Source: Escherichia coli (lineage in GTDB: Bacteria; Pseudomonadota; Gammaproteobacteria; Enterobacterales; Enterobacteriaceae). From it: a DNA stretch of 64,000 nucleotides. This document shows, piece after piece, positions 25,327 through 63,790 of the stretch. The translations under genes were made by a program, and so were the position numbers. Within the stretch, counting starts at the first letter, position 1. Each line of letters starts with the position of its first letter. The notes under the pieces were generated by a model. It was not told the origin of the DNA, did not search any database, and was given only the letters and a program-made list of their open reading frames with translations. The stretch is taken from assembly GCF_030013205.1 (NCBI RefSeq), contig NZ_CP122648.1; one strand, 5' to 3'.

Positions 25327-25333
25327 AAATACA

Positions 25334-25360
25334 GGGCTGGAGTCATCCGGCCCTTTTTTT
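25334..25360 (+). terminator. rho-independent terminator after bamC
   Basis: Hairpin gggctgg-agtcat-ccggccc followed by T7. Confidence 0.65.
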
Positions 25361-25361
25361 G

Positions 25362-26070: not shown

Positions 26071-26091
26071 TCTGATATGATACGCAAACGT

Positions 26092-26107
26092 GTGCGTCGG
26101 CAGAAAA
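26092..26107. promoter_or_regulatory. PurR operator (pur box) of purC
   Basis: ACGCAAACGTGTGCGT, near-perfect pur box, ~145 nt upstream of purC ATG. Confidence 0.7.
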
Positions 26108-26143
26108 ATGCGATTTTAGCGGTAATTCGCACAAAATTTGTTT

Positions 26144-26198
<55 letters not shown>

Positions 26199-26250
26199 AC
26201 CAGACAGCAAAAGATTTTAAAACGTTAATTCACACCCAGGAGTGATAAAG

Positions 26251-26964
26251 ATGCAAAAGCAAGCTGAGTTGTATCGTGGTAAAGCGAAAACCGTATACAG
26301 CACGGAAAACCCGGACCTGTTGGTGCTCGAATTCCGCAATGATACGTCAGCAGGGGATGGCGCGCGCATTGAGCAGTTTGATCGCAAAGGTATGGTGAAC
26401 AACAAGTTCAACTACTCCATTATGAGCAAACTGGCTGAAGCGGGTATCCCGACTCAAATGGAGCGTCTGCTCTCCGATACCGAATGTCTGGTGAAAAAGC
26501 TGGATATGGTGCCGGTTGAGTGTGTCGTGCGTAACCGTGCTGCTGGATCTCTGGTGAAACGTCTTGGAATCGAAGAAGGTATTGAGCTGAACCCACCGCT
26601 GTTCGATCTGTTCCTGAAAAACGACGCCATGCACGATCCGATGGTCAACGAATCTTACTGCGAAACCTTTGGCTGGGTGAGCAAAGAGAACCTGGCGCGT
26701 ATGAAAGAGCTGACCTACAAAGCGAACGACGTGCTGAAAAAACTGTTCGATGATGCTGGTCTGATTTTGGTCGACTTTAAACTGGAGTTTGGCCTGTACA
26801 AAGGTGAAGTGGTACTGGGCGATGAGTTCTCCCCGGACGGCAGCCGCCTGTGGGACAAAGAAACGCTGGAGAAAATGGACAAAGACCGTTTCCGCCAGAG
26901 CCTCGGTGGCCTGATCGAGGCCTATGAAGCCGTCGCCCGCCGCCTGGGTGTACAGCTGGACTGA
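26251..26964 (+). CDS. purC: phosphoribosylaminoimidazole-succinocarboxamide synthase (SAICAR synthetase)
   Basis: 237 aa starting [28 protein letters not shown]. Confidence 0.95.
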
Positions 26965-27131
26965 TTTTTCTGCTCATCATCTTGCCGTGCAGCTGGCACG
27001 GCAAGACAACCGCTCTCGGAAGATGTGCATTGAACGCTCATTCCTCCGCCATTTCATCCCGCTTTCCTGTGGTAATCTTCCTCTGAACCACCTACGATCA
27101 TTTCTATAATGAATATATTGTTGAGGTATCT

Positions 27132-27995
27132 ATGCGTTGGCAAGGGCGACGTGAAAGTGACAATGTTGAAGACAGGCGCAACAGCTCTGGTGGTCCGTCA
27201 ATGGGCGGTCCAGGTTTTCGCCTGCCAAGCGGTAAAGGCGGGCTGATTTTACTGATAGTCGTGCTGGTTGCAGGTTACTATGGCGTTGATTTAACCGGGT
27301 TGATGACCGGACAGCCGGTTTCCCAACAGCAATCAACACGGTCAATTAGTCCTAATGAAGACGAAGCCGCAAAATTCACTTCGGTGATTCTGGCAACCAC
27401 GGAAGACACCTGGGGACAGCAATTCGAGAAGATGGGTAAAACCTATCAGCAACCGAAGCTGGTCATGTACCGTGGAATGACGCGCACCGGCTGCGGGGCG
27501 GGCCAGTCCATTATGGGACCGTTCTATTGCCCGGCGGATGGCACGGTTTATATCGATCTCTCCTTCTATGATGACATGAAAGACAAACTTGGCGCGGATG
27601 GCGATTTTGCCCAGGGGTACGTTATCGCCCATGAAGTCGGTCATCATGTGCAGAAACTGTTAGGCATCGAGCCGAAAGTTCGTCAACTGCAACAAAACGC
27701 GACGCAGGCGGAAGTGAACCGCTTATCTGTGCGTATGGAACTCCAGGCCGACTGTTTTGCTGGTGTCTGGGGGCATAGTATGCAGCAGCAAGGCGTTCTG
27801 GAAACCGGCGATCTGGAAGAGGCGCTGAACGCGGCGCAGGCCATCGGCGATGACCGTTTACAACAGCAAAGTCAGGGGCGAGTAGTACCAGACAGTTTCA
27901 CTCATGGCACTTCTCAGCAACGCTACAGCTGGTTTAAACGTGGTTTCGACAGCGGCGATCCGGCACAATGCAATACTTTTGGTAAAAGCATTTAA
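27132..27995 (+). CDS. ypfJ: putative neutral zinc metallopeptidase-like protein (uncharacterised)
   Basis: 287 aa, N-terminal TM segment, HEVGHH zinc motif. Confidence 0.85.
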
Positions 27996-28009
27996 CTTCC
28001 GGGGCAGGG

Positions 28010-30025
28010 ATGGCTGAACTAACTGCGCTTCACACATTAACAGCGCAAATGAAACGTGAAGGGATCCGCCGCTTGCTGGTGTTGAGCGGGGAAGAGGGTT
28101 GGTGTTTTGATCATGCGCTTAAGTTGCGTGATGCCTTACCTGGCGACTGGCTGTGGATTTCGCCGCAGCCAGATGCTGAAAACCACTGTTCACCCTCGGC
28201 GCTACAAACTTTACTTGGGCGCGAGTTCCGGCATGCGGTATTCGACGCCCGCCACGGCTTTGATGCCGCTGCCTTTGCGGCACTTAGCGGAACGTTGAAA
28301 GCGGGAAGTTGGCTGGTTTTGTTACTCCCTGTATGGGAAGAGTGGGAAAACCAACCTGATGCCGACTCGCTGCGCTGGAGTGATTGCCCTGACCCTATTG
28401 CGACGCCGCATTTTGTCCAGCATCTCAAACGCGTACTTACGGCGGATAACGACGCTATTCTCTGGCGGCAAAACCAGCCGTTCTCGTTGGCGCATTTTAC
28501 TCCCCGTACTGACTGGCACCCCGCGACCGGCGCACCACAACCAGAACAACAGCAACTCTTACAGCAGCTACTGACCATGCCGCCGGGCGTGGCAGCGGTA
28601 ACTGCTGCGCGTGGGCGCGGTAAATCGGCGTTGGCAGGGCAACTCATTTCTCGTATTGCGGGCAGTGCGATTGTCACCGCGCCCGCAAAAGCGGCAACGG
28701 ATGTACTGGCACAATTTGCGGGCGAGAAGTTTCGCTTTATTGCGCCGGATGCCTTGTTAGCCAGCGATGAGCAAGCCGACTGGCTGGTGGTCGATGAAGC
28801 CGCAGCTATACCTGCGCCGTTGTTGCATCAACTGGTATCGCGTTTTCCTCGAACGTTGTTAACCACTACGGTGCAGGGCTACGAAGGCACCGGACGTGGT
28901 TTTTTGCTGAAATTTTGCGCTCGCTTTCCGCATTTACACCGTTTTGAACTACAACAGCCGATCCGCTGGGCGCAGGGATGCCCGCTGGAAAAAATGGTTA
29001 GTGAGGCACTGGTGTTTGACGATGAAAACTTCACCCATACACCACAAGGCAATATCGTCATTGCCGCATTTGAACAGACGTTATGGCGAAGTGAGCCAGA
29101 AACGCCGTTAAAGGTTTATCAGCTATTGTCTGGTGCGCACTACCGGACCTCGCCGCTGGATTTACGCCGCATGATGGATGCACCAGGGCAACATTTTTTA
29201 CAGGCGGCTGGCGACAACGAGATTGCCGGGGCGCTGTGGCTGGTGGATGAGGGGGGATTATCTCAACAACTCAGTCAGGCGGTATGGGCGGGTTTTCGTC
29301 GCCCGCGGGGTAATCTGGTGGCTCAGTCGCTGGCGGCGCACGGCAGCAATCCTCTGGCGGCGACATTGCGCGGACGGCGGGTCAGCCGGATAGCAGTTCA
29401 TCCGGCTCGTCAGCGGGAAGGCACAGGGCGGCAACTTATTGCTGGTGCTTTGCAATATACGCGTGACCTCGACTATCTTTCGGTGAGTTTTGGTTACACC
29501 GGGGAGTTATGGCGTTTCTGGCAACGCTGCGGTTTTGTGCTGGTGCGAATGGGTAATCATCGTGAAGCCAGCAGCGGTTGCTATACGGCGATGGCGTTGT
29601 TACCGATGAGTGATGCGGGTAAACAGCTGGCTGAACGTGAGCATTACCGTTTACGTCGCGATGCGCAAGCTCTCGCGCAGTGGAATGGCGAAACGCTCCC
29701 TGTTGATCCACTAAACGATGCCGTCCTTTCTGACGACGACTGGCTTGAACTGGCCGGTTTTGCTTTCGCTCATCGTCCGCTATTAACGTCGTTAGGTTGC
29801 TTAATGCGTCTGTTACAAACCAGCGAACTGGCATTACCGGCGCTGCGTGGGCGTTTACAGAAAAACGCCAGTGACGCGCAGTTATGTACCACACTTAAAC
29901 TTTCAGGCCGTAAGCTGTTACTGGTCCGTCAACGCGAAGAAGCCGCGCAGGCGCTGTTCGCACTTAATTATGTTCGCACTGAGCGTCTGCGCGATCGCAT
30001 AACGCAATGGCAATTTTTTCACTGA
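28010..30025 (+). CDS. tmcA: tRNA(Met) cytidine acetyltransferase
   Basis: 671 aa, Walker A ARGRGKSA, C-terminal GNAT-like region. Confidence 0.9.
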   Translation: MAELTALHTLTAQMKREGIRRLLVLSGEEGWCFDHALKLRDALPGDWLWISPQPDAENHCSPSALQTLLGREFRHAVFDARHGFDAAAFAALSGTLKAGSWLVLLLPVWEEWENQPDADSLRWSDCPDPIATPHFVQHLKRVLTADNDAILWRQNQPFSLAHFTPRTDWHPATGAPQPEQQQLLQQLLTMPPGVAAVTAARGRGKSALAGQLISRIAGSAIVTAPAKAATDVLAQFAGEKFRFIAPDALLASDEQADWLVVDEAAAIPAPLLHQLVSRFPRTLLTTTVQGYEGTGRGFLLKFCARFPHLHRFELQQPIRWAQGCPLEKMVSEALVFDDENFTHTPQGNIVIAAFEQTLWRSEPETPLKVYQLLSGAHYRTSPLDLRRMMDAPGQHFLQAAGDNEIAGALWLVDEGGLSQQLSQAVWAGFRRPRGNLVAQSLAAHGSNPLAATLRGRRVSRIAVHPARQREGTGRQLIAGALQYTRDLDYLSVSFGYTGELWRFWQRCGFVLVRMGNHREASSGCYTAMALLPMSDAGKQLAEREHYRLRRDAQALAQWNGETLPVDPLNDAVLSDDDWLELAGFAFAHRPLLTSLGCLMRLLQTSELALPALRGRLQKNASDAQLCTTLKLSGRKLLLVRQREEAAQALFALNYVRTERLRDRITQWQFFH

Positions 30026-47752: not shown

Positions 47753-47769
47753 TTCATTCTTAACTCTCA

Positions 47770-47804
47770 CGCTTACCCTGAATATTCAGGGTAAGCGGTT
47801 TTCC
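47770..47804 (+). terminator. rho-independent terminator after maeB
   Basis: Hairpin cgcttaccctga-atat-tcagggtaagcg followed by gttttcc. Confidence 0.7.
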
Positions 47805-48044
47805 TGAAATATATTAGTAAAGCTTATTACTGAGTTTACGAATAATAAAAAAAGCAGTATATGAAATATCTCGATATTATTTTATTTATATTCATGCGTC
47901 GCATATGAAAGTTTATTCATAACAGTAAATATCTCTCCATTCTTAGTGATCTACCTCACCTTTTAAACGTACTTGCCGAATTTTGTTATTTACTCTGACG
48001 AAAAATTGTCACGATACACGCAAGTTTTTCACAGGCGGCGACTC

Positions 48045-48380
48045 ATGGATAAAGAACGCATCATTCAGGAATTTGTGCCCGGTAAACAAGTCACGCTGGC
48101 GCATCTCATCGCGCATCCCGGCGAGGAACTGGCGAAGAAAATCGGCGTTCCGGATGCTGGCGCAATCGGCATTATGACGCTAACTCCAGGCGAAACGGCG
48201 ATGATCGCCGGTGATTTAGCGCTGAAAGCCGCTGATGTGCATATCGGTTTTCTCGACCGCTTCAGCGGTGCATTGGTGATTTATGGCTCGGTGGGCGCAG
48301 TAGAAGAAGCATTATCACAAACCGTCAGCGGTTTAGGTCGCTTATTAAATTATACGCTTTGTGAAATGACCAAAAGTTAA
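48045..48380 (+). CDS. eutS: BMC shell protein EutS
   Basis: 111 aa starting [22 protein letters not shown]; first gene of eut operon. Confidence 0.9.
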
Positions 48381-48392
48381 TACGAGGCATTC

Positions 48393-48872
48393 ATGAAACG
48401 AATTGCGTTTGTGGGTACCGTCGGGGCAGGAAAAACAACGTTATTTAATGCGTTGCAGGGGAATTATACCCTCGCCAGAAAAACACAGGCCGTGGAATTT
48501 AATGATAAAGGCGATATTGATACGCCGGGTGAATATTTTAGCCATCCCCGCTGGTATCACGCCTTAATTACCACGCTACAGGATGTGGACATGCTGATCT
48601 ATGTCCACGGCGCGAATGACCCGGAAAGTCGGTTGCCTGCCGGGTTGCTGGATATTGGCGTCAGCAAACGGCAAATCGCCGTCATCAGTAAAACGGACAT
48701 GCCAGATGCTGACGTCGCCGCAACGCGAAAGTTATTGCTTGAGACGGGCTTCGAAGAGCCGATTTTCGAGCTAAACAGCCACGACCCGCAAAGCGTGCAG
48801 CAACTGGTGGATTATCTGGCATCTCTCACCAAACAGGAGGAAGCAGGTGAAAAAACTCATCACAGCGAATGA
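48393..48872 (+). CDS. eutP: ethanolamine utilisation GTPase/acetate-kinase-like protein EutP
   Basis: 159 aa, P-loop GTVGAGKTT. Confidence 0.9.
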   Translation: MKRIAFVGTVGAGKTTLFNALQGNYTLARKTQAVEFNDKGDIDTPGEYFSHPRWYHALITTLQDVDMLIYVHGANDPESRLPAGLLDIGVSKRQIAVISKTDMPDADVAATRKLLLETGFEEPIFELNSHDPQSVQQLVDYLASLTKQEEAGEKTHHSE

Positions 48873-49548
48873 TATTCGCGAAGCACACGCGCGCGGCGAA
48901 CAGGCAATGTCCGTGGTTCTGCGCGCCAGCATTATTACTCCGGAAGCCCGTGAAGTGGCGGATCTGTTGGGTTTTACCATCACCGAATGTGATGAATCGA
49001 CTGCGGTAACGACGTCCGTTCCCGCCAGCGTGCCAGCCGATAAAACCGAAAGCCAGCGCATCCGCGAAACCATCATCGCCCAGCTACCGGAAGGCCAGTT
49101 TACCGAAAGTCTGGTCGCGCAGCTGATGGAAAAAGTGATGAAGGAAAAACAGTTACTGGAGCAGGGTGCAATGCAGCCGAGTTTCAAATCGGTGACCGGC
49201 AAAGGCGGCATCAAAGTTATTGATGGCAGCAGCGTCAAGTTTGGTCGTTTCGACGGCGCACAGCCACACTGCGTCGGATTAACGGATCTGGTCACCGGAG
49301 ACGACGGCAGCAGCATGGCCGCTGGTTTTATGCAGTGGGAGAACGCCTTCTTCCCGTGGACCCTGAACTATGACGAAATCGATATGGTACTGGAAGGGGA
49401 ACTGCACGTTCGCCACGAAGGCGAAACCATGATCGCCAAAGCAGGCGACGTGATGTTTATCCCGAAAGGCTCCAGCATCGAATTTGGTACGACATCCAGC
49501 GTGAAATTCCTGTATGTCGCCTGGCCGGCTAACTGGCAATCCCTATGA
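48847..49548 (+). CDS. eutQ: ethanolamine utilisation cupin-like protein EutQ
   Basis: 233 aa; overlaps eutP 3' end. Confidence 0.88.
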   Translation: MKKLITANDIREAHARGEQAMSVVLRASIITPEAREVADLLGFTITECDESTAVTTSVPASVPADKTESQRIRETIIAQLPEGQFTESLVAQLMEKVMKEKQLLEQGAMQPSFKSVTGKGGIKVIDGSSVKFGRFDGAQPHCVGLTDLVTGDDGSSMAAGFMQWENAFFPWTLNYDEIDMVLEGELHVRHEGETMIAKAGDVMFIPKGSSIEFGTTSSVKFLYVAWPANWQSL

Positions 49549-50348
49549 AAGATTTCATCACCGAAGCATGGCTAAGAGCGAATCATACGCTTAGCGAAGG
49601 CGCAGAGATCCATCTCCCTGCGGACAGTCGCCTGACGCCCTCTGCCCGGGAGTTGCTGGAAAGCCGCCATCTGCGCATCAAGTTTATTGACGAGCAGGGC
49701 CGCCTGTTTGTTGACGATGAACAGCAGCAGCCGCAGCCCGTTCATGGGCTGACCAGTAGCGATGAACATCCGCAGGCGTGCTGCGAACTGTGCCGCCAGC
49801 CGGTGGCGAAAAAGCCGGATACGCTGACTCACCTGTCGGCGGAAAAAATGGTTGCCAAAAGCGATCCGCGCCTGGCTTTTCGCGCTGTTCTCGACAGCAC
49901 CATTGCGCTGGCAGTGTGGCTGCAAATTGAACTGGCGGAACCGTGGCAGCCGTGGCTGGCGGATATCCGTTCGCGTCTTGGCAACATTATGCGTGCCGAT
50001 GCGCTGGGGGAACCGCTGGCCTGCCAGGCGATTGTCGGGCTTTCTGACGAAGATCTGCATCGGCTTTCTCACCAGCCGCTGCGCTATCTTGGTCACGATC
50101 ATCTGGTGCCGGAAGCCAGCCACGGGCGCGATGCGGCGTTACTCAATCTGCTACGCACCAAAGTGCGGGAAACCGAAACCGTAGCAGCGCAGGTATTTAT
50201 CACCCGCAGCTTTGAAGTATTACGCCTGGACATCTTGCAGGCGCTGAACCGCCTTTCCAGCACGGTTTACGTGATGATGATCCTGAGCGTAGCGAAACAA
50301 CCGCTAACGGTGAAGCAGATCCAACAACGACTGGGGGAAACGCAATGA
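49545..50348 (+). CDS. eutT: corrinoid (cobalamin) adenosyltransferase EutT
   Basis: 267 aa; ATGA overlap with eutQ. Confidence 0.9.
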
Positions 50349-51361
50349 TTATTGAACGTTGTCGTGAACTGGCGTTGCGAGCGCCCGCCAGAGTGGTATT
50401 TCCGGATGCGTTAGATCAACGTGTGCTGAAAGCTGCGCAATATTTATATCAACAAGGTCTGGCAACGCCCATTCTGGTCGCTAATCCGTTTGAACTTCGT
50501 CAGTTTGCGCTCAGTCATGGCGTAGCGATGGACGGGCTACAGGTGATTGATCCGCATGGCAACCTCGCAATGCGGGAAGAATTTGCTCATCGCTGGCTGG
50601 CCCGCGCGGGCGAAAAAACGCCGCCGGATGCGCTGGAAAAACTTACCGACCCGCTGATGTTCGCCGCAGCAATGGTCAGCGCCGGTAAAGCGGATGTCTG
50701 TATCGCGGGCAACCTCTCTTCCACGGCGAATGTGCTGCGTGCCGGATTACGCATTATCGGCTTGCAGCCAGGCTGTAAAACGCTCTCATCCATTTTCCTG
50801 ATGCTGCCACAGTACAGCGGTCCGGCGTTGGGTTTTGCCGATTGCAGCGTGGTGCCACAGCCGACGGCGGCGCAGTTGGCGGATATCGCGCTTGCCAGCG
50901 CCGAAACCTGGCGCGCCATCACCGGAGAAGAGCCGCGCGTGGCGATGTTGTCGTTTTCCAGTAACGGCAGCGCCCGTCACCCCTGCGTTGCCAACGTCCA
51001 GCAGGCGACAGAAATGGTCCGTGAGCGCGCGCCGCAGTTGGTAGTCGATGGCGAGTTGCAGTTTGACGCCGCCTTCGTGCCGGAAGTGGCGGCGCAAAAA
51101 GCGCCTGCCAGCCCGCTACAAGGCAAGGCCAATGTGATGGTTTTTCCGTCGCTGGAAGCCGGAAATATTGGATACAAAATCGCACAACGACTCGGCGGAT
51201 ATCGTGCCGTCGGGCCATTGATACAAGGACTTGCCGCGCCGATGCACGATCTCTCTCGTGGTTGTAGCGTGCAGGAAATTATCGAGCTGGCGCTGGTGGC
51301 AGCTGTGCCGCGTCAGACAGAAGTGAACCGCGAAAGCAGTTTACAAACACTGGTTGAATGA
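50345..51361 (+). CDS. eutD: phosphotransacetylase EutD
   Basis: 338 aa PTA family. Confidence 0.92.
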
Positions 51362-51399
51362 ACGGTCCCGTTCTGGACCCTGATAAAGAGGAAAGCACA

Positions 51400-51693
51400 A
51401 TGGAAGCATTAGGAATGATCGAAACCCGGGGCCTGGTTGCACTGATTGAGGCTTCTGACGCGATGGTGAAAGCTGCGCGCGTCAAACTGGTTGGTGTTAA
51501 GCAGATTGGCGGCGGCCTGTGTACTGCCATGGTTCGTGGTGATGTTGCAGCCTGTAAAGCCGCGACCGACGCAGGTGCCGCCGCGGCACAGCGTATCGGC
51601 GAGCTGGTATCTGTACACGTTATCCCGCGTCCGCACGGCGACCTGGAAGAAGTCTTCCCGATCGGCCTGAAAGGCGATAGCAGCAACCTGTAA
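51400..51693 (+). CDS. eutM: BMC-H shell protein EutM
   Basis: 97 aa [28 protein letters not shown]; canonical BMC domain. Confidence 0.93.
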
Positions 51694-51799
51694 TCACCCT
51701 GTGTGACGTCGATTCGGGCGTCACGCTCTCTCCTTTTTCATTTTACCTTCTGCGGAGGGTAGGGGGAGCTTTTACCTGAAATACGCCACGGAGGCGGGT

Positions 51800-52087
51800 A
51801 TGAAACTGGCAGTCGTCACAGGACAAATTGTTTGTACCGTACGCCATCACGGACTGGCGCATGACAAATTGCTGATGGTGGAAATGATTGATCCACAAGG
51901 TAATCCTGACGGGCAATGCGCCGTCGCCATCGACAATATTGGCGCGGGAACCGGGGAGTGGGTGTTGCTGGTGAGTGGCAGTTCTGCCCGCCAGGCGCAT
52001 AAAAGCGAAACGTCACCGGTCGATCTGTGCGTGATTGGCATCGTCGATGAGGTGGTGTCTGGCGGTCAGGTAATTTTCCACAAATAA
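51800..52087 (+). CDS. eutN: BMC vertex protein EutN
   Basis: 95 aa MKLAVVTGQIVCTVRHHGL; EutN/CcmL family. Confidence 0.92.
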   Translation: MKLAVVTGQIVCTVRHHGLAHDKLLMVEMIDPQGNPDGQCAVAIDNIGAGTGEWVLLVSGSSARQAHKSETSPVDLCVIGIVDEVVSGGQVIFHK

Positions 52088-52098
52088 GGCAGAACATC

Positions 52099-53502
52099 AT
52101 GAATCAACAGGATATTGAACAGGTGGTGAAAGCGGTACTGCTGAAAATGCAAAGCAGTGACACGCCGCCCGCCGCCGTTCATGAGATGGGCGTTTTCGCG
52201 TCCCTGGATGACGCCGTTGCGGCAGCCAAAATTGCCCAGCAAGGGTTAAAAAGCGTGGCAATGCGCCAGTTAGCCATTGCTGCCATTCGTGAAGCAGGCG
52301 AAAAACACGCCAGAGATTTAGCGGAACTTGCCGTCAGTGAAACCGGCATGGGCCGCGTCGAAGATAAATTTGCCAAAAACGTCGCTCAGGCGCGCGGCAC
52401 ACCAGGCGTTGAGTGCCTCTCACCACAGGTGCTGACCGGTGACAACGGCCTGACTTTAATTGAAAACGCGCCCTGGGGCGTGGTGGCTTCGGTGACGCCT
52501 TCCACTAACCCGGCGGCAACCGTAATTAACAACGCCATCAGCCTGATTGCCGCGGGCAACAGCGTCATTTTTGCCCCGCATCCGGCGGCGAAAAAAGTCT
52601 CCCAGCGGGCGATCACGCTGCTCAACCAGGCGATTGTTGCCGCAGGCGGGCCGGAAAACTTACTGGTTACTGTGGCCAATCCGGATATCGAAACCGCGCA
52701 ACGTTTGTTCAAGTTCCCGGGTATCGGCCTGCTGGTGGTGACCGGCGGCGAAGCGGTAGTGGAAGCGGCGCGTAAACACACCAATAAACGTCTGATTGCC
52801 GCAGGTGCTGGCAACCCGCCGGTAGTGGTGGATGAAACCGCTGACCTCGCCCGTGCAGCTCAGTCCATCGTCAAAGGTGCTTCTTTCGATAACAACATCA
52901 TTTGTGCCGACGAAAAGGTACTGATTGTTGTTGATAGCGTAGCCGATGAACTGATGCGTCTGATGGAAGGCCAGCACGCGGTGAAACTGACCGCAGAGCA
53001 GGCGCAGCAGCTACAACCGGTGTTGCTGAAAAATATCGACGAGCGCGGAAAAGGCACCGTCAACCGTGACTGGGTTGGTCGCGATGCGGCGAAAATCGCG
53101 GCGGCAATCGGCCTTAAAGTTCCGGAACAAACGCGACTGCTGTTTGTAGAAACCACCGCAGAACATCCGTTTGCTGTGACTGAACTGATGATGCCGGTGC
53201 TGCCCGTCGTGCGCGTCGCCAACGTGGCGGATGCCATTGCGCTGGCGGTGAAACTGGAAGGCGGTTGCCATCACACGGCGGCAATGCACTCGCGCAACAT
53301 CGAAAACATGAACCAGATGGCGAATGCCATTGATACCAGCATTTTCGTTAAGAACGGACCGTGTATTGCCGGGCTGGGGCTGGGCGGGGAAGGCTGGACC
53401 ACCATGACCATCACCACGCCAACCGGTGAAGGGGTAACCAGCGCGCGGACGTTTGTCCGTCTGCGTCGCTGTGTATTAGTCGATGCGTTTCGCATTGTTT
53501 AA
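52099..53502 (+). CDS. eutE: CoA-acylating acetaldehyde dehydrogenase EutE
   Basis: 467 aa aldehyde dehydrogenase family. Confidence 0.93.
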   Translation: MNQQDIEQVVKAVLLKMQSSDTPPAAVHEMGVFASLDDAVAAAKIAQQGLKSVAMRQLAIAAIREAGEKHARDLAELAVSETGMGRVEDKFAKNVAQARGTPGVECLSPQVLTGDNGLTLIENAPWGVVASVTPSTNPAATVINNAISLIAAGNSVIFAPHPAAKKVSQRAITLLNQAIVAAGGPENLLVTVANPDIETAQRLFKFPGIGLLVVTGGEAVVEAARKHTNKRLIAAGAGNPPVVVDETADLARAAQSIVKGASFDNNIICADEKVLIVVDSVADELMRLMEGQHAVKLTAEQAQQLQPVLLKNIDERGKGTVNRDWVGRDAAKIAAAIGLKVPEQTRLLFVETTAEHPFAVTELMMPVLPVVRVANVADAIALAVKLEGGCHHTAAMHSRNIENMNQMANAIDTSIFVKNGPCIAGLGLGGEGWTTMTITTPTGEGVTSARTFVRLRRCVLVDAFRIV

Positions 53503-53512
53503 GGAGTAACAG

Positions 53513-54349
53513 ATGGCGCACGACGAACAATGGCTCACCCCACGTCTGCACATAGCAGCAACGCTGTGTAACCAGACGCCTGCCGCGACGGAATCTCCGC
53601 TGTGGCTGGGGGTGGATCTGGGCACCTGCGATGTGGTGTCGATGGTTGTTGACCGCGACGGTCAGCCGGTGGCGGTATGCCTCGACTGGGCTGATGTGGT
53701 CCGCGACGGCATCGTCTGGGATTTCTTCGGTGCGGTCACCATTGTTCGTCGCCATCTCGACACCCTCGAGCAGCAATTCGGTCGCCGTTTTAGCCATGCG
53801 GCGACCTCTTTTCCTCCAGGTACGGACCCGCGTATTTCCATCAACGTGCTGGAGTCTGCCGGACTGGAAGTGAGTCATGTGCTGGATGAGCCAACCGCAG
53901 TCGCGGATCTGCTGCAACTGGACAACGCCGGTGTAGTGGATATCGGCGGTGGCACTACTGGTATTGCCATCGTGAAAAAGGGCAAGGTGACTTACTCGGC
54001 AGATGAAGCCACCGGCGGACATCATATCTCTCTGACTCTCGCCGGAAATCGCCGTATTTCGCTGGAAGAGGCAGAGCAGTACAAACGCGGTCACGGTGAC
54101 GAGATTTGGCCTGCGGTGAAACCGGTGTACGAAAAAATGGCGGACATTGTCGCCCGGCATATTGAAGGGCAGGGCATTACTGATTTATGGCTGGCGGGCG
54201 GCTCTTGTATGCAACCGGGCGTGGCGGAACTGTTTCGCAAACAATTCCCGGCGTTACAGGTGCATCTACCGCAGCACAGTTTGTTTATGACCCCGCTGGC
54301 GATCGCCAGTAGCGGGCGAGAGAAAGCGGAGGGGATCTATGCAAAATGA
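53513..54349 (+). CDS. eutJ: chaperone-like (actin/Hsp70 fold) protein EutJ
   Basis: 278 aa. Confidence 0.9.
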   Translation: MAHDEQWLTPRLHIAATLCNQTPAATESPLWLGVDLGTCDVVSMVVDRDGQPVAVCLDWADVVRDGIVWDFFGAVTIVRRHLDTLEQQFGRRFSHAATSFPPGTDPRISINVLESAGLEVSHVLDEPTAVADLLQLDNAGVVDIGGGTTGIAIVKKGKVTYSADEATGGHHISLTLAGNRRISLEEAEQYKRGHGDEIWPAVKPVYEKMADIVARHIEGQGITDLWLAGGSCMQPGVAELFRKQFPALQVHLPQHSLFMTPLAIASSGREKAEGIYAK

Positions 54350-55526
54350 ATTGCAGACCGCGCTCTTTCAGGCGTTCGATACCCTGAATCTGCAACGGGT
54401 AAAAACATTTAGCGTTCCACCGGTGACGCTTTGCGGTCCGGGCGCGGTGAGCAGTTGCGGACAGCAAGCGCAAACGCGTGGGCTGAAACATCTGTTCGTG
54501 ATGGCAGATAGCTTTTTGCATCAGGCAGGGATGACCGCCGGGCTGACGCGTAGCCTGGCCGTTAAAGGTATCGCCATGACGCTCTGGCCATGTCCGGTGG
54601 GCGAACCATGCATCACCGACGTGTGTGCAGCCGTGGCGCAGTTGCGTGAATCAGGCTGTGACGGGGTGATTGCGTTTGGCGGCGGCTCGGTGCTGGATGC
54701 AGCAAAAGCCGTGGCGTTGCTGGTGACGAACCCGGATAGCACGCTGGCAGAGATGTCAGAAACCAGCGTTCTGCAACCGCGCCTGCCGTTGATTGCCATT
54801 CCAACTACCGCCGGAACCGGTTCTGAAACCACCAACGTAACGGTGATTATCGACGCGGTGAGCGGGCGCAAGCAGGTGTTAGCCCACGCCTCGCTGATGC
54901 CGGATGTGGCGATTCTCGACGCTGCGCTGACCGAAGGCGTGCCGTCGCATGTCACGGCGATGACCGGTATCGACGCGTTAACCCATGCTATTGAAGCGTA
55001 CAGCGCGCTGAACGCCACACCGTTTACCGACAGTCTGGCGATTGGTGCCATTGCGATGATTGGCAAATCGCTGCCGAAAGCGGTGGGCTACGGTCACGAC
55101 CTTGCCGCCCGCGAGAGCATGTTGCTGGCTTCATGTATGGCGGGAATGGCGTTTTCCAGTGCGGGGCTTGGGTTGTGCCACGCGATGGCGCATCAGCCAG
55201 GGGCGGCGCTGCATATTCCGCACGGTCTGGCGAACGCCATGTTGCTGCCAACGGTGATGGAATTTAACCGGATGGTTTGTCGTGATCGGTTTAGTCAGAT
55301 TGGTCGGGCACTGCGAACTAAAAAATCCGACGATCGTGACGCTATTAACGCGGTAAGTGAGCTGATTGCGGAAGTCGGGATTGGTAAACGACTGGGCGAT
55401 GTTGGTGCAACATCTGCGCATTACGGCGCATGGGCGCAGGCCGCGCTGGAAGATATTTGTCTGCGCAGCAACCCGCGTACCGCCAGCCTGGAGCAGATTG
55501 TCGGCTTGTACGCAGCGGCGCAATAA
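54339..55526 (+). CDS. eutG: iron-containing alcohol dehydrogenase EutG
   Basis: 395 aa Fe-ADH family. Confidence 0.92.
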   Translation: MQNELQTALFQAFDTLNLQRVKTFSVPPVTLCGPGAVSSCGQQAQTRGLKHLFVMADSFLHQAGMTAGLTRSLAVKGIAMTLWPCPVGEPCITDVCAAVAQLRESGCDGVIAFGGGSVLDAAKAVALLVTNPDSTLAEMSETSVLQPRLPLIAIPTTAGTGSETTNVTVIIDAVSGRKQVLAHASLMPDVAILDAALTEGVPSHVTAMTGIDALTHAIEAYSALNATPFTDSLAIGAIAMIGKSLPKAVGYGHDLAARESMLLASCMAGMAFSSAGLGLCHAMAHQPGAALHIPHGLANAMLLPTVMEFNRMVCRDRFSQIGRALRTKKSDDRDAINAVSELIAEVGIGKRLGDVGATSAHYGAWAQAALEDICLRSNPRTASLEQIVGLYAAAQ

Positions 55527-55539
55527 AAGTGTACGGACA

Positions 55540-55650
55540 GTCCCCTCGCCCCTTTGGGGAGAGGGTTAGGGTGAGGGGAACAGAGTCGCGCCGGTGCAAA
55601 CAATTACCCTCACCCCGGCCCCTCGGCTTCCAGAGTGAGGGAAAAACCCA
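55540..55650. repeat. GC-rich palindromic repeat (copy 2) plus inverted partial copy, in the eutG-eutH spacer
   Basis: gtcccctcgcccctttggggagagggttagggtgaggggaaca (1 mismatch to copy 1) then ...ttaccctcaccccggcccctcggcttccagagtgagggaaaaaccc. Confidence 0.7.
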
Positions 55651-55695
55651 CTTTCAGCATTGGCAATAAATAACAACTAACAGGGAGTAAAGGCG

Positions 55696-56922
55696 ATGGG
55701 AATTAACGAAATCATCATGTACATCATGATGTTCTTTATGCTGATAGCTGCCGTAGACAGGATCCTGTCGCAGTTCGGCGGTTCTGCTCGTTTCCTCGGT
55801 AAGTTCGGTAAAAGTATCGAAGGATCCGGCGGTCAGTTCGAAGAAGGCTTTATGGCAATGGGCGCACTGGGCCTGGCGATGGTCGGTATGACCGCGCTGG
55901 CACCGGTACTGGCCCACGTACTCGGACCGGTGATTATCCCGGTTTACGAAATGCTCGGCGCAAACCCGTCAATGTTCGCCGGAACACTGCTGGCGTGCGA
56001 TATGGGCGGCTTCTTCCTCGCCAAAGAGCTGGCGGGCGGCGACGTAGCAGCGTGGCTATACTCTGGGTTAATTCTCGGGTCGATGATGGGGCCAACGATT
56101 GTGTTTTCCATTCCGGTGGCGCTCGGCATTATCGAACCTTCTGACCGTCGTTATCTGGCGCTCGGCGTGCTGGCGGGCATTGTGACCATTCCGATTGGCT
56201 GTATTGCCGGTGGTCTGGTGGCTATGTATTCCGGTGTGCAGATCAACGGTCAGCCAGTGGAATTCACCTTTGCCCTGATCCTGATGAACATGATCCCGGT
56301 ACTTATCGTCGCGGTACTGGTGGCGCTGGGGCTGAAATTCATCCCGGAAAAAATGATCAACGGCTTCCAGATCTTCGCCAAATTCCTCGTTGCATTGATC
56401 ACCCTCGGTCTTGCCGCTGCGGTAGTGAAATTCCTGCTCGGTTGGGAACTGATCCCCGGTCTGGATCCGATCTTCATGGCTCCAGGCGACAAACCCGGTG
56501 AAGTGATGCGCGCCATTGAAGTTATCGGTTCTATCTCCTGTGTTCTGTTAGGGGCGTACCCGATGGTATTGCTGCTGACCCGCTGGTTTGAAAAACCGCT
56601 GATGAGCGTCGGTAAAGTGCTGAATATGAACAATATCGCGGCAGCTGGCATGGTGGCAACGCTTGCCAACAACATCCCAATGTTTGGCATGATGAAGCAG
56701 ATGGATACCCGCGGCAAAGTCATCAACTGCGCCTTCGCCGTTTCCGCTGCTTTCGCCCTGGGTGACCACTTAGGCTTCGCCGCTGCCAACATGAACGCCA
56801 TGATTTTCCCGATGATTGTCGGCAAGTTGATCGGCGGCGTAACGGCGATTGGCGTGGCGATGATGCTGGTGCCAAAAGAAGACGCGACCGCGGCCAAAAC
56901 CGAAGCGGAGGCACAATCGTGA
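55696..56922 (+). CDS. eutH: ethanolamine permease EutH
   Basis: 408 aa polytopic membrane protein. Confidence 0.92.
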   Translation: MGINEIIMYIMMFFMLIAAVDRILSQFGGSARFLGKFGKSIEGSGGQFEEGFMAMGALGLAMVGMTALAPVLAHVLGPVIIPVYEMLGANPSMFAGTLLACDMGGFFLAKELAGGDVAAWLYSGLILGSMMGPTIVFSIPVALGIIEPSDRRYLALGVLAGIVTIPIGCIAGGLVAMYSGVQINGQPVEFTFALILMNMIPVLIVAVLVALGLKFIPEKMINGFQIFAKFLVALITLGLAAAVVKFLLGWELIPGLDPIFMAPGDKPGEVMRAIEVIGSISCVLLGAYPMVLLLTRWFEKPLMSVGKVLNMNNIAAAGMVATLANNIPMFGMMKQMDTRGKVINCAFAVSAAFALGDHLGFAAANMNAMIFPMIVGKLIGGVTAIGVAMMLVPKEDATAAKTEAEAQS

Positions 56923-58322
56923 ACACTCGCCAGCTACTGAGCGTCGGTATCGATATCGGCACCACCACCACCCAGGTGATCTTCTCCCACCTGGAGCTGG
57001 TTAACCGTGCGGCGGTGTCGCAGGTGCCGCGCTACGAATTCATCAAACGCGAAATTAGCTGGCAAAGCCCGGTGTTCTTTACCCCTGTCGATAAACAGGG
57101 TGGTTTAAAAGAAGCGGAACTGAAATCGCTGATTTTAGAGCAATATCAGGCTGCGGGCATTGCGCCGGAAAGCGTTGATTCTGGTGCCATCATCATCACC
57201 GGTGAAAGCGCGAAAACCCGCAACGCTCGCCCGGCGGTGATGACGCTCTCCCAGTCGCTGGGCGATTTTGTCGTCGCCAGCGCCGGGCCGCATCTCGAAT
57301 CCGTGATCGCCGGTCACGGTGCCGGGGCGCAAACCCTTTCTGAACAACGGCTGTGTCGGGTACTGAATATCGACATCGGCGGTGGCACCGCGAACTACGC
57401 CCTGTTCGATGCCGGAAAAATCAGCGGCACTGCCTGCCTCAACGTCGGTGGTCGCCTGCTGGAAACTGACAGCCAGGGGCGCGTGGTTTACGCTCATAAA
57501 CCGGGGCAGATGATTGTGGATGAGTGCTTCGGTGCAGGCACTGACGCCCGTTCGCTGACCGGCGCGCAGCTGGTGCAGGTTACCCGCCGGATGGCAGAGC
57601 TGATTGTCGAAGTGATTGACGGAACGCTCTCGCCGCTCGCGCAGGCATTGATGCAAACCGGTTTGCTGCCCGCAGGTGTTACGCCCGAAATCATTACGCT
57701 TTCTGGCGGCGTGGGCGAATGTTATCGCCACCAGCCCGCCGACCCGTTCTGTTTTGCCGATATCGGCCCGCTTCTGGCAACGGCGCTGCATGACCATCCG
57801 CGCCTGCGTGAGATGAACGTGCAGTTTCCGGCGCAAACCGTACGCGCCACGGTGATTGGCGCGGGTGCACATACCCTTTCGCTCTCTGGCAGCACAATCT
57901 GGCTGGAGGGCGTACAACTGCCGCTGCGCAATTTGCCGGTGGCGATCCCAATTGATGAAACGGATCTGGTGAGTGCCTGGCAACAGGCGCTGATTCAGCT
58001 GGATCTTGATCCCAATTCTGACGCGTACGTGCTGGCGCTTCCCGCCTCGCTGCCTGTGCGTTACGCCGCGGTACTGACGGTCATCAACGCGCTGGTCGAT
58101 TTCGTCGCGCGTTTTCCGAATCCGCATCCCCTGCTGGTGGTGGCCGGGCAGGACTTTGGTAAAGCTCTGGGCATGTTGTTGCGCCCACAGCTACAACAAC
58201 TCCCGTTGGCAGTCATTGACGAAGTGATTGTCCGCGCGGGGGACTATATCGACATTGGTACGCCTCTTTTTGGCGGATCGGTTGTGCCGGTGACGGTGAA
58301 ATCACTCGCATTTCCTTCCTGA
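56919..58322 (+). CDS. eutA: ethanolamine ammonia-lyase reactivase EutA
   Basis: 467 aa. Confidence 0.92.
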   Translation: MNTRQLLSVGIDIGTTTTQVIFSHLELVNRAAVSQVPRYEFIKREISWQSPVFFTPVDKQGGLKEAELKSLILEQYQAAGIAPESVDSGAIIITGESAKTRNARPAVMTLSQSLGDFVVASAGPHLESVIAGHGAGAQTLSEQRLCRVLNIDIGGGTANYALFDAGKISGTACLNVGGRLLETDSQGRVVYAHKPGQMIVDECFGAGTDARSLTGAQLVQVTRRMAELIVEVIDGTLSPLAQALMQTGLLPAGVTPEIITLSGGVGECYRHQPADPFCFADIGPLLATALHDHPRLREMNVQFPAQTVRATVIGAGAHTLSLSGSTIWLEGVQLPLRNLPVAIPIDETDLVSAWQQALIQLDLDPNSDAYVLALPASLPVRYAAVLTVINALVDFVARFPNPHPLLVVAGQDFGKALGMLLRPQLQQLPLAVIDEVIVRAGDYIDIGTPLFGGSVVPVTVKSLAFPS

Positions 58323-58333
58323 GGGAACGACTT

Positions 58334-59695
58334 ATGAAACTAAAGACCACATTGTTCGGCAATGTATATCAGTTTAAGGATGTAAAAGAGGTGCTGGCTA
58401 AAGCCAACGAACTGCGTTCTGGGGATGTGCTGGCAGGCGTTGCAGCGGCAAGTTCACAGGAGCGCGTGGCGGCAAAGCAGGTGTTGTCGGAAATGACCGT
58501 AGCGGACATCCGCAATAATCCGGTGATTGCCTATGAAGATGACTGCGTGACGCGGCTGATTCAGGACGATGTTAACGAAACGGCCTACAACCAGATTAAA
58601 AACTGGAGCATCAGCGAACTGCGTGAGTATGTGCTGAGCGATGAAACCAGCGTGGACGACATTGCCTTTACCCGCAAAGGGCTGACCTCGGAAGTGGTCG
58701 CGGCGGTAGCGAAGATTTGCTCCAACGCGGACCTGATCTACGGCGCGAAGAAAATACCGGTGATCAAAAAGGCCAATACCACCATCGGTATTCCGGGCAC
58801 CTTCAGCGCCCGCTTGCAGCCAAACGACACCCGTGACGACGTGCAAAGTATCGCCGCGCAAATCTACGAAGGGCTTTCCTTCGGGGTGGGCGATGCGGTG
58901 ATCGGCGTTAACCCGGTGACTGACGACGTGGAAAACTTAAGCCGCGTGTTGGACACCATCTATGGCGTGATCGACAAATTCAACATTCCGACCCAGGGCT
59001 GCGTGCTGGCGCACGTCACCACCCAGATTGAAGCGATCCGTCGCGGCGCGCCTGGCGGACTGATTTTCCAGAGTATCTGTGGCAGCGAAAAAGGGCTGAA
59101 AGAGTTTGGCGTGGAACTGGCGATGCTCGACGAAGCGCGCGCAGTGGGCGCAGAGTTCAACCGTATCGCCGGGGAAAACTGCCTCTACTTCGAAACCGGA
59201 CAAGGCTCTGCGCTGTCCGCTGGCGCGAACTTCGGCGCAGACCAGGTGACGATGGAAGCGCGTAACTATGGGCTGGCGCGTCATTACGATCCGTTTATCG
59301 TCAACACCGTGGTCGGCTTTATTGGGCCGGAGTATCTCTACAACGACCGCCAGATTATCCGTGCGGGCTTAGAAGATCACTTTATGGGTAAGCTGAGCGG
59401 CATCTCTATGGGCTGTGACTGCTGCTACACCAACCACGCTGACGCTGACCAGAACCTCAACGAAAACCTGATGATCCTGCTCGCCACCGCAGGCTGCAAC
59501 TACATCATGGGGATGCCGCTGGGCGATGACATCATGCTCAACTATCAGACCACCGCATTCCACGACACTGCCACTGTGCGTCAGTTACTCAACCTGCGCC
59601 CGTCACCGGAGTTTGAACGCTGGCTGGAAAGCATGGGCATTATGGCAAACGGTCGCCTGACCAAACGGGCGGGCGATCCGTCACTGTTCTTCTGA
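58334..59695 (+). CDS. eutB: ethanolamine ammonia-lyase large subunit
   Basis: 453 aa. Confidence 0.95.
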   Translation: MKLKTTLFGNVYQFKDVKEVLAKANELRSGDVLAGVAAASSQERVAAKQVLSEMTVADIRNNPVIAYEDDCVTRLIQDDVNETAYNQIKNWSISELREYVLSDETSVDDIAFTRKGLTSEVVAAVAKICSNADLIYGAKKIPVIKKANTTIGIPGTFSARLQPNDTRDDVQSIAAQIYEGLSFGVGDAVIGVNPVTDDVENLSRVLDTIYGVIDKFNIPTQGCVLAHVTTQIEAIRRGAPGGLIFQSICGSEKGLKEFGVELAMLDEARAVGAEFNRIAGENCLYFETGQGSALSAGANFGADQVTMEARNYGLARHYDPFIVNTVVGFIGPEYLYNDRQIIRAGLEDHFMGKLSGISMGCDCCYTNHADADQNLNENLMILLATAGCNYIMGMPLGDDIMLNYQTTAFHDTATVRQLLNLRPSPEFERWLESMGIMANGRLTKRAGDPSLFF

Positions 59696-59715
59696 TGACG
59701 CGGAGATAACACATC

Positions 59716-60603
59716 ATGGATCAAAAACAGATTGAAGAAATTGTACGCAGCGTGATGGCGTCAATGGGACAAGCGGCCCCCGCGCCGTCAGAAGCAAAGT
59801 GCGCCACCACCACCTGTGCGGCACCGGTGACCTCGGAAAGCTGCGCGCTGGATTTAGGCTCTGCGGAAGCAAAAGCGTGGATTGGCGTTGAAAACCCGCA
59901 TCGCGCAGACGTATTAACAGAACTGCGTCGCAGCACCGTGGCCCGCGTTTGTACCGGTCGTGCCGGTCCGCGTCCGCGTACCCAGGCGCTGCTGCGTTTC
60001 CTGGCCGATCACTCTCGTTCGAAAGATACCGTACTGAAAGAAGTGCCGGAAGAGTGGGTGAAAGCGCAGGGCTTGCTGGAAGTCCGCTCTGAAATTAGCG
60101 ACAAAAATCTCTACCTGACTCGTCCGGATATGGGCCGCCGCCTGTGTGCAGAAGCTGTAGAAGCGCTGAAAGCACAGTGTGTTGCTAATCCGGACGTACA
60201 GGTCGTTATTTCTGATGGCCTGTCAACTGATGCGATCACCGTGAACTACGAAGAGATCCTGCCACCGCTGATGGCGGGCCTGAAACAGGCCGGGCTGAAA
60301 GTCGGTACGCCATTCTTTGTTCGTTATGGTCGCGTGAAGATTGAAGATCAGATCGGTGAGATCCTCGGCGCGAAAGTGGTGATCCTGCTGGTGGGGGAAC
60401 GCCCGGGATTAGGGCAGTCAGAAAGTCTCTCCTGCTACGCCGTTTACTCGCCGCGTATGGCGACCACCGTTGAGGCCGATCGCACCTGCATCTCTAACAT
60501 TCACCAGGGCGGCACGCCGCCGGTTGAAGCCGCAGCCGTCATTGTGGATTTGGCGAAACGTATGCTGGAGCAGAAAGCATCCGGCATCAACATGACCCGA
60601 TAA
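59716..60603 (+). CDS. eutC: ethanolamine ammonia-lyase small subunit
   Basis: 295 aa. Confidence 0.95.
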
Positions 60604-60612
60604 GGAGGCATC

Positions 60613-61272
60613 ATGCCAGCTTTAGATTTGATTCGACCGTCGGTCACCGCCATGCGGGTGATTGCCTCTGTTAACGCCGAATTTGCGCGTGAACTGAAAT
60701 TGCCGCCGCATATTCGTAGCCTCGGGCTGATTTCTGCTGATTCCGATGACGTCACCTACATTGCGGCTGACGAAGCGACCAAACAGGCGATGGTCGAAGT
60801 GGTGTATGGTCGCTCGCTGTATGCGGGCGCTGCACACGGACCGTCACCGACTGCCGGTGAAGTGCTGATTATGCTTGGTGGGCCAAACCCGGCGGAAGTG
60901 CGTGCAGGTCTGGATGCGATGGTTGCGCATATTGAAAATGGCGCTGCTTTCCAGTGGGCTAATGACGCAGAAAATACAGCCTTCCTGGCACATGTAGTTT
61001 CGCGTACCGGTTCTTATCTCTCATCAACCGCCGGGATCACGCTTGGCGATCCGATGGCGTATCTGGTGGCACCGCCGCTGGAAGCGACCTATGGCATTGA
61101 TGCAGCCCTGAAATCTGCCGACGTACAGCTGGTGACCTATGTCCCGCCACCGTCTGAAACCAACTACTCGGCAGCATTTTTAACCGGTAGCCAGGCAGCG
61201 TGTAAAGCAGCCTGTAACGCCTTTACCGATGCAGTGCTGGAAATCGCGCGTAATCCAATCCAGCGTGCGTAA
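60613..61272 (+). CDS. eutL: BMC-T (tandem) shell protein EutL
   Basis: 219 aa. Confidence 0.92.
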
Positions 61273-61284
61273 CGGAGGTTGCCG

Positions 61285-61785
61285 ATGATCAATGCACTGG
61301 GATTGCTGGAAGTGGACGGCATGGTCGCCGCGCTAGATGCTGCGGATGCCATGCTCAAAGCAGCTAACGTTCGTCTGCTCAGTCACGAAGTGCTTGACCC
61401 TGGTCGCCTAACGCTGGTGGTGGAAGGCGATCTGGCGGCGTGTCGTGCGGCGCTGGACGCAGGTTGTGCTGCCGCGATGCGTACCGGGCGTGTCATCAGC
61501 CGCAAGGAGATCGGTCGGCCAGACGATGACACCCAGTGGCTGGTTACTGGCTTTAACCGCCAGCCTAAGCAACCCGTAAAGGAACCCGACGCGCCAGTTA
61601 TCGTCGCGGAATCTGCTGACGAGTTGTTGGCGCTGTTAACATCAGTACGTCAGGGAATGACGGCAGGAGAAGTGGCTGCCCACTTTGGCTGGCCGCTGGA
61701 AAAAGCCAGAAATGCGCTCGAACAGCTCTTTTCTGCCGGGACGTTACGTAAACGCAGTAGTCGTTATCGTCTCAAGCCCCATTAA
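61285..61785 (+). CDS. eutK: BMC shell protein EutK with C-terminal helix-turn-helix extension
   Basis: 166 aa MINALGLLEVDGMVAALDAADAMLKAANV... BMC domain then basic HTH-like tail. Confidence 0.9.
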   Translation: MINALGLLEVDGMVAALDAADAMLKAANVRLLSHEVLDPGRLTLVVEGDLAACRAALDAGCAAAMRTGRVISRKEIGRPDDDTQWLVTGFNRQPKQPVKEPDAPVIVAESADELLALLTSVRQGMTAGEVAAHFGWPLEKARNALEQLFSAGTLRKRSSRYRLKPH

Positions 61786-61830
61786 CCTGTCGGAGGTGCC
61801 GGGTGTCCTACAACACCCGGCATTAACATC

Positions 61831-63790
<1,960 letters not shown>

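Follow-up and report, generated by a model that had tools for sequence, protein, structure and literature searches.

In Escherichia coli K-12, the eut operon is split between eutA and eutB by a cryptic prophage, CPZ-55. The question raised by the locus described here is whether the operon is uninterrupted at that point, as a first-pass annotation had proposed, and whether its genes are intact. We addressed this question in the window, by which we mean the whole 64,000-nucleotide stretch of DNA that was analyzed, and in comparisons of the window with K-12 and with other E. coli genomes.

Gene content of the eut operon

The window contains 17 eut genes, eutSPQTDMNEJGHABCLKR, all on the plus strand and in canonical order at 48045-62904. 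Projection of the K-12 proteins onto the window by tblastn gave one match for each protein; 17/17 were full-length and gap-free, with identities of 97.4-100%. The genes and the region upstream of them are listed below, with identities given relative to the K-12 proteins unless otherwise stated.

47753..48044, plus strand: maeB-eutS intergenic region; aligned with K-12, strain 746 and ECONIH5 at a mean column identity of 97%
47770-47797: maeB terminator hairpin, within the maeB-eutS intergenic region
48045..48380, plus strand: eutS, shell protein, 111 aa; 100% identical; Pfam BMC
48393..48872, plus strand: eutP, 159 aa; 98.1%, full length, gap-free
48847..49548, plus strand: eutQ, 233 aa, GTG start; 97.4%; exact allele on 248 contigs
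49545..50348, plus strand: eutT, corrinoid adenosyltransferase, 267 aa; 98.1%; exact allele on 238 contigs
50345..51361, plus strand: eutD, phosphotransacetylase, 338 aa; 99.1%; exact allele on 228 contigs
51400..51693, plus strand: eutM, major hexameric shell protein, 97 aa; 100%; Pfam BMC
51800..52087, plus strand: eutN, pentameric vertex protein, 95 aa; 100%; Pfam EutN_CcmL
52099..53502, plus strand: eutE, acetaldehyde dehydrogenase, 467 aa; 98.7%; exact allele on 760 contigs
53513..54349, plus strand: eutJ, 278 aa; 98.6%
54339..55526, plus strand: eutG, alcohol dehydrogenase, 395 aa; 99.0%
55696..56922, plus strand: eutH, ethanolamine permease, 408 aa; 99.3%; Pfam EutH
56919..58322, plus strand: eutA, ethanolamine ammonia-lyase reactivase, 467 aa, GTG start, TGA stop at 58320-58322; 98.1%, gap-free; Pfam EutA (1.1e-179); exact allele on at least 1000 contigs
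58334..59695, plus strand: eutB, ethanolamine ammonia-lyase large subunit, 453 aa, ATG start, M141I; 452/453 residues as in K-12; exact allele on 39 contigs
59716..60603, plus strand: eutC, ethanolamine ammonia-lyase small subunit, 295 aa; 99.7%; Pfam EutC
60613..61272, plus strand: eutL, tandem-BMC-domain shell protein, 219 aa; 97.7%; two BMC-domain stretches; exact allele on at least 1000 contigs
61285..61785, plus strand: eutK, shell protein, 166 aa; 98.8%; Pfam BMC and EutK_C
61831..62904, plus strand: eutR, AraC-family activator, 357 aa; 350-aa core 99.1%; distal end of the operon

EutB, EutC and EutA match their Pfam families over the full length. The shell set is represented by BMC (PF00936) in EutS, EutM, EutL (two stretches) and EutK, and by EutN_CcmL (PF03319) in EutN. 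Neither tblastn nor inspection of the per-residue differences from K-12 revealed a frameshift, internal stop or truncation in any of the 17 genes. The first-pass annotation had named inactivating mutations in eut genes as a possible objection to its view; closer alignment to the K-12 proteins found none, the differences being conservative substitutions only. Ten eut protein alleles were searched for elsewhere, among them every allele with a lineage-specific change, and each was present on further contigs, from 39 to at least 1000 of them; the near-identical operon of P15-25 carries no pseudogene flags from the NCBI annotation pipeline (PGAP).

The gene-order result is a description, to which a chance test is inapplicable. 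The earlier claim that the 17 genes are contiguous, co-oriented and full length holds, with two refinements: a 169-nt gap containing a repeat separates eutG from eutH, and eutR is longer than in K-12. We conclude that 48045-62904 is very probably the standard EUT1-type eut operon with 17 genes, in the uninterrupted state that is common in E. coli, and no observation speaks against this structural reading.

The eutA-eutB junction as a probable integration site

The stop codon of eutA had been placed at 58322 and the start of eutB at 58334, with 11 nt between them that contain only a ribosome binding site. The open reading frames and the sequence itself agree with these positions exactly. The junction has the following elements.

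58315..58322, plus strand: CTTCCTGA, single unoccupied 8-bp core (empty attachment site), from comparison with the K-12 and ECONIH5 junctions
58323..58333, plus strand: eutA-eutB spacer, GGGAACGACTT, 11 nt; the same in K-12 beside eutB

The only feature of the spacer is a Shine-Dalgarno-like GAGGG (58321-58325), which overlaps the eutA stop codon and lies 8 nt upstream of the eutB ATG. A site scan of the spacer returned 0 promoter-like sites and 0 terminator-like sites on the plus strand. We regard the junction as an 11-nt translational spacer, with the high confidence that we place in the standard-operon explanation as a whole.

The K-12 MG1655 RefSeq record annotates a ‘cryptic prophage CPZ-55’ at 2558691..2565480, between eutB (b2441) and eutA (b2451). 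This element is 6,790 bp long and comprises intZ and yffL-yffS, transcribed opposite to the eut genes. Compared base by base, K-12 and the window match as far as the stop of eutA, and the match resumes from CTTCCTGAGGGAACGACTTATG onward. Because identity breaks and resumes at these two points, CPZ-55 lies exactly at the eutA-eutB junction. The MG1655 annotation and these breakpoints support the statement, in the first-pass annotation, that CPZ-55 splits eutA from eutB in K-12, and the comparison with MG1655 that it recommended places the prophage at this junction and not elsewhere.

The octamer CTTCCTGA spans the last codons of eutA together with its stop codon. In K-12 and in ECONIH5 the junction breaks right after it, and in both the octamer is repeated beside eutB; the window has one copy only, and no duplicated octamer flanking an insert. 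The same 8 bp have been reported as the reverse complement, TCAGGAAG, in a study that placed the CPZ-55 insertion, which duplicates 8 bp, directly behind the stop codon of eutA and found the prophage in ~8% of strains (PMC6379469). Elsewhere the site has been named a ‘prophage insertion hot spot’ (PMC6652756). Such elements place intZ, which encodes a tyrosine integrase, and cargo between the two eut genes; the window has just 11 nt there, and a megablast search of the whole window with the K-12 prophage segment found no CPZ-55 remnants. The last 8 bp of eutA are, in all likelihood, an unoccupied integration site for CPZ-55 and related elements with IntZ-type tyrosine integrases, a reading that shares the confidence given to the explanation as a whole. 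We also considered that a prophage might have been collapsed out of the assembly, and rejected this, as the identical junction recurs in independent complete genomes from this lineage.

Across identity bands, eutA and eutB are contiguous in 4963/5426 complete E. coli genomes (91.5%). An intZ-type element adjoins eutB in 407 genomes of this set (n=5426), and the K-12 (yffS) end of CPZ-55 adjoins eutA in 244 of the 5426. The eut operon was found to be conserved in 47/47 UPEC strains (PMC6652756). The window is ~100% identical to porcine O139:H1/ETEC strains, and the ~18 near-identical porcine relatives among the matches listed all have the same contiguous operon. An empty site could nevertheless be secondary rather than ancestral, if the junction once held an IntZ-type element that was later excised precisely; site-specific excision by a tyrosine recombinase is scarless, and different elements use this site repeatedly. 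The uniformly contiguous operon of the porcine relatives and its predominance among complete genomes in all identity bands argue against such a history, which we consider extremely improbable. The simplest reading is that the junction was never occupied in this lineage.

The uninterrupted operon is the norm in E. coli, and K-12 with its prophage is the exception. Because the junction is uninterrupted in 91.5% of complete genomes, it indicates no special property of this strain; the observation of an intact junction is correct, but it is ordinary and already published.

Lineage features of EutB, EutR and the eutG-eutH spacer

Exactly two differences separate the operon in the window from that of its nearest relatives, one at nucleotide 58756, which gives EutB M141I, and one in a G tract in eutR. 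A further feature distinguishes it from K-12.

55527..55695, plus strand: eutG-eutH spacer, 169 nt, with a G-rich boxC-like repeat, from the alignment

These two differences, and a eutG-eutH spacer whose content is unrelated to that of K-12, allow for an operon that is structurally intact yet functionally impaired, whether by EutB M141I, by the EutR extension and its overlap with hemF, or by a polar effect of the boxC-like repeat. The exchange of methionine for isoleucine is conservative, however, and 452/453 residues of EutB are the same as in the solved E. coli enzyme (3ABO). We did not judge M141I to be harmful, and rejected it as such, because Listeria EutB (2QEZ) has a native isoleucine aligned with position 141; the allele also recurs on those 39 contigs.

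The eutR gene lacks the K-12 stop codon and continues for 7 codons, encoding 357 aa versus 350. Loss of the stop (T to G) creates a G7 tract; the tract in the window has 6 G, one fewer. The end of eutR overlaps hemF, a convergent gene, at the 3’ end of the latter, and the longer EutR reading frames (357 and 374 aa) both extend into hemF. The HTH_18 and HTH_AraC domains occupy residues 250-341, and the 7-aa C-terminal tail begins only after residue 350. EutR forms of 350, 357 and 374 aa each occur on at least 1000 contigs, the exact 357-aa protein of the window among them. The extension was rejected as harmful, being a common allele that lies outside the HTH domains. There is a very slim prospect that this length polymorphism tunes EutR activity or eutR/hemF expression; if it did, inducibility would vary from lineage to lineage among eut operons that are ‘intact’.

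In the alignment, the G-rich repeat of the eutG-eutH spacer, which we take to be ‘boxC’, is unrelated to the repeats found there in K-12 (REP/BIME units), ECONIH5 and 14EC029. Strain 746 and P15-25 share the spacer of the window. A site scan found no terminator-like site inside it, and its predicted RNA fold is unexceptional (z = -1.7). To judge from sequence, none of the three features looks inactivating, and we consider a functionally impaired operon improbable; the standard, uninterrupted operon is the reading that we carry forward. In a separate Rfam scan, the whole window yielded a single match, STnc490, which is part of an IS200 copy unrelated to eut; an IS200C marker lies at 25360-26065.

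Expected function and comparison with known systems

The main eut promoter (PI), which is EutR-dependent, would lie upstream of eutS within 47753..48044, judging by the operon description in PMC7617246. A sigma-70 consensus scan found nothing upstream of eutS, a result that is expected because the promoter is activator-dependent. With nothing inserted at the junction, a transcript from this promoter could run through eutA into eutBCLKR, and with such read-through the lyase EutBC, the EutL and EutK shell proteins and the EutR activator would be made in step. We infer transcription across the eutA-eutB junction, microcompartment assembly and growth in this strain.

The suggestion in the first-pass annotation that this strain probably has a functional ethanolamine microcompartment system is well backed by experiments on other strains. 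Growth on ethanolamine as a nitrogen source returns once K-12 BW25113 has been freed of the prophage without a scar (PMC11334477). Nissle 1917, whose operon is uninterrupted, forms Eut microcompartments; BW25113 with the prophage forms none, and its eutB is uninduced (PMC7617246). The operon in the window is uninterrupted and intact, so that, if B12 is supplied, this porcine O139:H1/ETEC-type strain would be expected to utilize ethanolamine, as a source of nitrogen at the very least. The genes for B12 uptake and salvage lie outside the window. An intact eut operon is no guarantee of growth on ethanolamine as sole carbon source; W3110 does not grow under this condition (PMC11334477), and PMC7617246 cites such growth for only 3/35 commensals.

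The main use of these results is correct annotation, as the reference strain K-12 is atypical at the eut locus. Because K-12 is atypical (Eut-negative), metabolic models and expectations built on it should not be carried over to this strain. Ethanolamine use has been tied to E. coli fitness in the gut and urinary tract (PMC6652756), and it is therefore plausible and expected that a pathogenic lineage from pigs has the complete operon. Earlier publications already describe where the prophage inserts, the 8-bp duplication, the view of the site as a hot spot and the regained use of ethanolamine once the prophage is removed, and the intact junction raises no new question.

The K-12 MG1655/BW25113 locus resembles the window in having all 17 genes, proteins that are 97-100% identical, and the same eutB leader and eutA stop. 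It differs in the 6,790 bp inserted after CTTCCTGA, with duplication of the octamer; in the window the octamer is single and nothing is inserted. IntZ-type elements in ECONIH5 and 14EC029 sit at exactly this insertion point behind the stop of eutA, which is unoccupied in the window; genomes of this type have 8-9 kb of integrase and variable cargo at the site, whereas the window has none. A ‘novel prophage’ was described at the same site in UPEC U71 (PMC6652756). The EUT1 locus of Salmonella enterica LT2 and the uninterrupted loci of Nissle 1917, UPEC isolates, the W3110 eut+ stock and BW25113 eut+ are described with the 17 genes, order and orientation seen in the window, with eutA and eutB adjacent and EutR last (PMC7617246, PMC11334477). 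From these uninterrupted loci, the window differs in allelic detail only: EutB M141I, 7 additional residues in EutR, and a eutG-eutH spacer that contains a boxC-like repeat instead of REP.

The eutA–eutB junction in the window and in K-12

The first-pass annotation held that eutA and eutB are separated by 11 nt containing only a ribosome-binding site, at a junction that K-12 fills with the cryptic prophage CPZ-55. Our ORF list and the sequence itself bear out the description of the junction:

56919..58322, + strand, eutA, GTG start, 467 aa
58334..59695, + strand, eutB, ATG start, 453 aa

The junction reads ...GCATTTCCTTCCTGA GGGAACGACTT ATGAAACTA..., with a spacer of exactly 11 nt between the eutA stop at 58322 and the eutB start at 58334. 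Apart from a Shine-Dalgarno-like GAGGG (58321-58325), which overlaps the stop codon of eutA and lies 8 nt 5’ of the ATG, the spacer has no recognisable signal; neither a promoter-like site nor a + strand terminator-like site was found within it.

The MG1655 RefSeq record places ‘cryptic prophage CPZ-55’ (2558691..2565480, 6,790 bp; intZ, yffL to yffS) between eutB (b2441) and eutA (b2451), with the prophage genes read opposite to eut. Alignment of both K-12 junctions to the window matched through the eutA stop codon, where prophage DNA follows, and the match starts again at CTTCCTGAGGGAACGACTTATG on the far side of CPZ-55. These breakpoints leave one copy of the octamer CTTCCTGA in the window (58315-58322) and two in K-12. 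No CPZ-55 DNA was present in the window. Annotation and alignment thus agree with the first-pass annotation: the K-12 prophage sits exactly at the eutA/eutB boundary. Both the uninterrupted junction and the K-12 prophage are already known from the literature and the reference annotation.

To gauge how common the empty site is, complete E. coli genomes were searched with a 601-bp probe that has the junction at its centre, requiring contiguous coverage of >=80%. The junction was uninterrupted in 4963/5426 genomes (91.5%). The K-12 eutB/intZ junction was found in 407 of the 5426 and the eutA/yffS junction in 244, so that an IntZ-type element occupies the site in ~7.5% of genomes and CPZ-55 proper accounts for roughly 60% of these; other junction states make up ~1%. 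The ~7.5% is consistent with the roughly 8% reported in a survey of 638 genomes (PMC6379469). An uninterrupted eutA-eutB is therefore the rule in E. coli, and K-12 the exception. That the site is secondarily empty, after precise excision of an element, is an unparsimonious reading, since nothing occupies the site in any of the close relatives or in most E. coli. Assembly collapse of an inserted element is contradicted by independent complete genomes from the same lineage.

Integrity of the operon

The earlier claim that all 17 eut genes are contiguous, co-oriented and full length also held. In tblastn searches of the window, every one of the 17 Eut proteins of K-12 gave one full-length, gap-free match on the + strand between 48045 and 62904, in the order eutSPQTDMNEJGHABCLKR and at 97.4-100% identity; a per-residue list showed that the differences from K-12 are substitutions only. 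Pfam identified BMC domains in EutS, EutM, EutL and EutK, EutN_CcmL in EutN, full-length family matches for EutA, EutB, EutC and EutH, and an AraC-type HTH in EutR. Gene spacings range from -26 to +45 nt, except at eutM-eutN (106 nt) and eutG-eutH (169 nt). Within the former gap, directly 3’ of the eutM stop codon, a 10-bp GC-rich hairpin (51701-51726) may stabilise or attenuate the transcript and lift EutM output above that of downstream genes. The eutG-eutH spacer (55527-55695) carries a G-rich palindromic repeat, which we take to be boxC-like; at the same position there are two REP/BIME units in K-12 and one in strains ECONIH5 and 14EC029. Given this variation in repeat content, the gap is a swap site for distinct repeat families. 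No terminator-like site was found in this spacer (fold z-score, -1.7).

The nearest complete genomes were ~18 porcine O139:H1/ETEC strains with ~100% identity across the 15.2-kb operon. One of these, P15-25, has 17/17 eut genes without pseudogene flags in its PGAP annotation and differs from the window at two points, nt 58756 and the eutR 3’ end. At nt 58756 the window has A and P15-25 has G (ATG to ATA), so that EutB residue 141 is Ile in the window, unlike in K-12 or the nearest porcine relatives. This exact M141I allele occurs on 39 contigs.

The eutR 3’ end is the sole slightly unusual item at the locus. K-12 eutR ends in GGGGG-TGA (350 aa); in P15-25 and strain 746, a T to G change abolishes the stop codon, so that the tract becomes G7 and EutR is 374 aa long. 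At 62868-62904 the window has G6, yielding 357 aa, the core plus EGVTPNP, with its stop at 62902-62904 and the frame overlapping the 3’ end of convergent hemF (62888..) by 17 nt. The one-G difference from otherwise identical relatives may reflect either genuine slippage or a sequencing error in the homopolymer. The 350-, 357- and 374-aa forms each occur on at least 1000 contigs, and the stop-loss and G-tract polymorphism is common in the population and probably neutral.

These two differences raise the question of an operon that is structurally intact yet impaired, which we consider unlikely. Comparison with K-12 (tblastn and per residue) and with P15-25 revealed no inactivating mutation in the eut genes; M141I is conservative, the aligned residue in the solved Listeria EutB (2QEZ) being Ile; and the EutR extension, a common allele, begins past residue 341, where the HTH domains end.

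Elsewhere in the window, an IS200C copy (25360-26065) lies in the bamC-purC spacer, with a Y1 transposase ORF ending at 25962 and an Rfam STnc490 match at 25371-25494. Strain 746 lacks it, just 19/5426 complete E. coli genomes have it at this position, and all 12 carriers listed of the 19 are porcine O139:H1/ETEC; it is therefore a clonal marker for the window’s source. The hda-arsC spacer (5061-5095) holds ~35 bp of REP-like sequence (GCCGGATGCGGCG...CTTATCCG type) additional to strain 746.

Expression and function

With nothing inserted between eutA and eutB, a single transcript from a promoter upstream of eutS may run on into eutBCLKR, and the predicted ribosome-binding site of eutB lies at the stop codon of eutA. 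Conservation of the maeB-eutS regulatory region relative to K-12 and other strains is 97%; a consensus scan did not locate the eut promoter upstream of eutS. In BW25113, which carries CPZ-55, eutS and eutR were induced and eutB was not, no microcompartments formed, and the strain did not grow on ethanolamine (PMC7617246). The observation and interpretation in the first-pass annotation are correct, and we infer, on good grounds and with experimental support from other strains, that the operon is functional in this one. It does not follow that the strain can live on ethanolamine as its sole carbon source: W3110 failed to grow in this way (PMC11334477), and only 3/35 commensals did so, as cited in PMC7617246.

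Other elements at the same site

Two strains carry elements other than CPZ-55 between eutA and eutB:

L004 (ECONIH5 locus), 12223-20032, non-CPZ-55 element at the eutA/eutB site
L006 (14EC029 locus), 20302-29608, non-CPZ-55 element at the eutA/eutB site

The ECONIH5 element has the identical breakpoint, with the octamer likewise repeated; its integrase is truncated, and it has been broken down by IS1 and IS3 and has gadC/gadB fragments aboard. The 14EC029 element (~9.3 kb) contains a full intZ, HTH regulators and a 2.2-kb hypothetical gene. Given how small they are, these elements may belong to a family of satellite-like islands. Both elements agree with the labelling of the site as a ‘prophage insertion hot spot’ (PMC6652756), and both resemble CPZ-55 at their integrase-proximal ends but differ from it in cargo.
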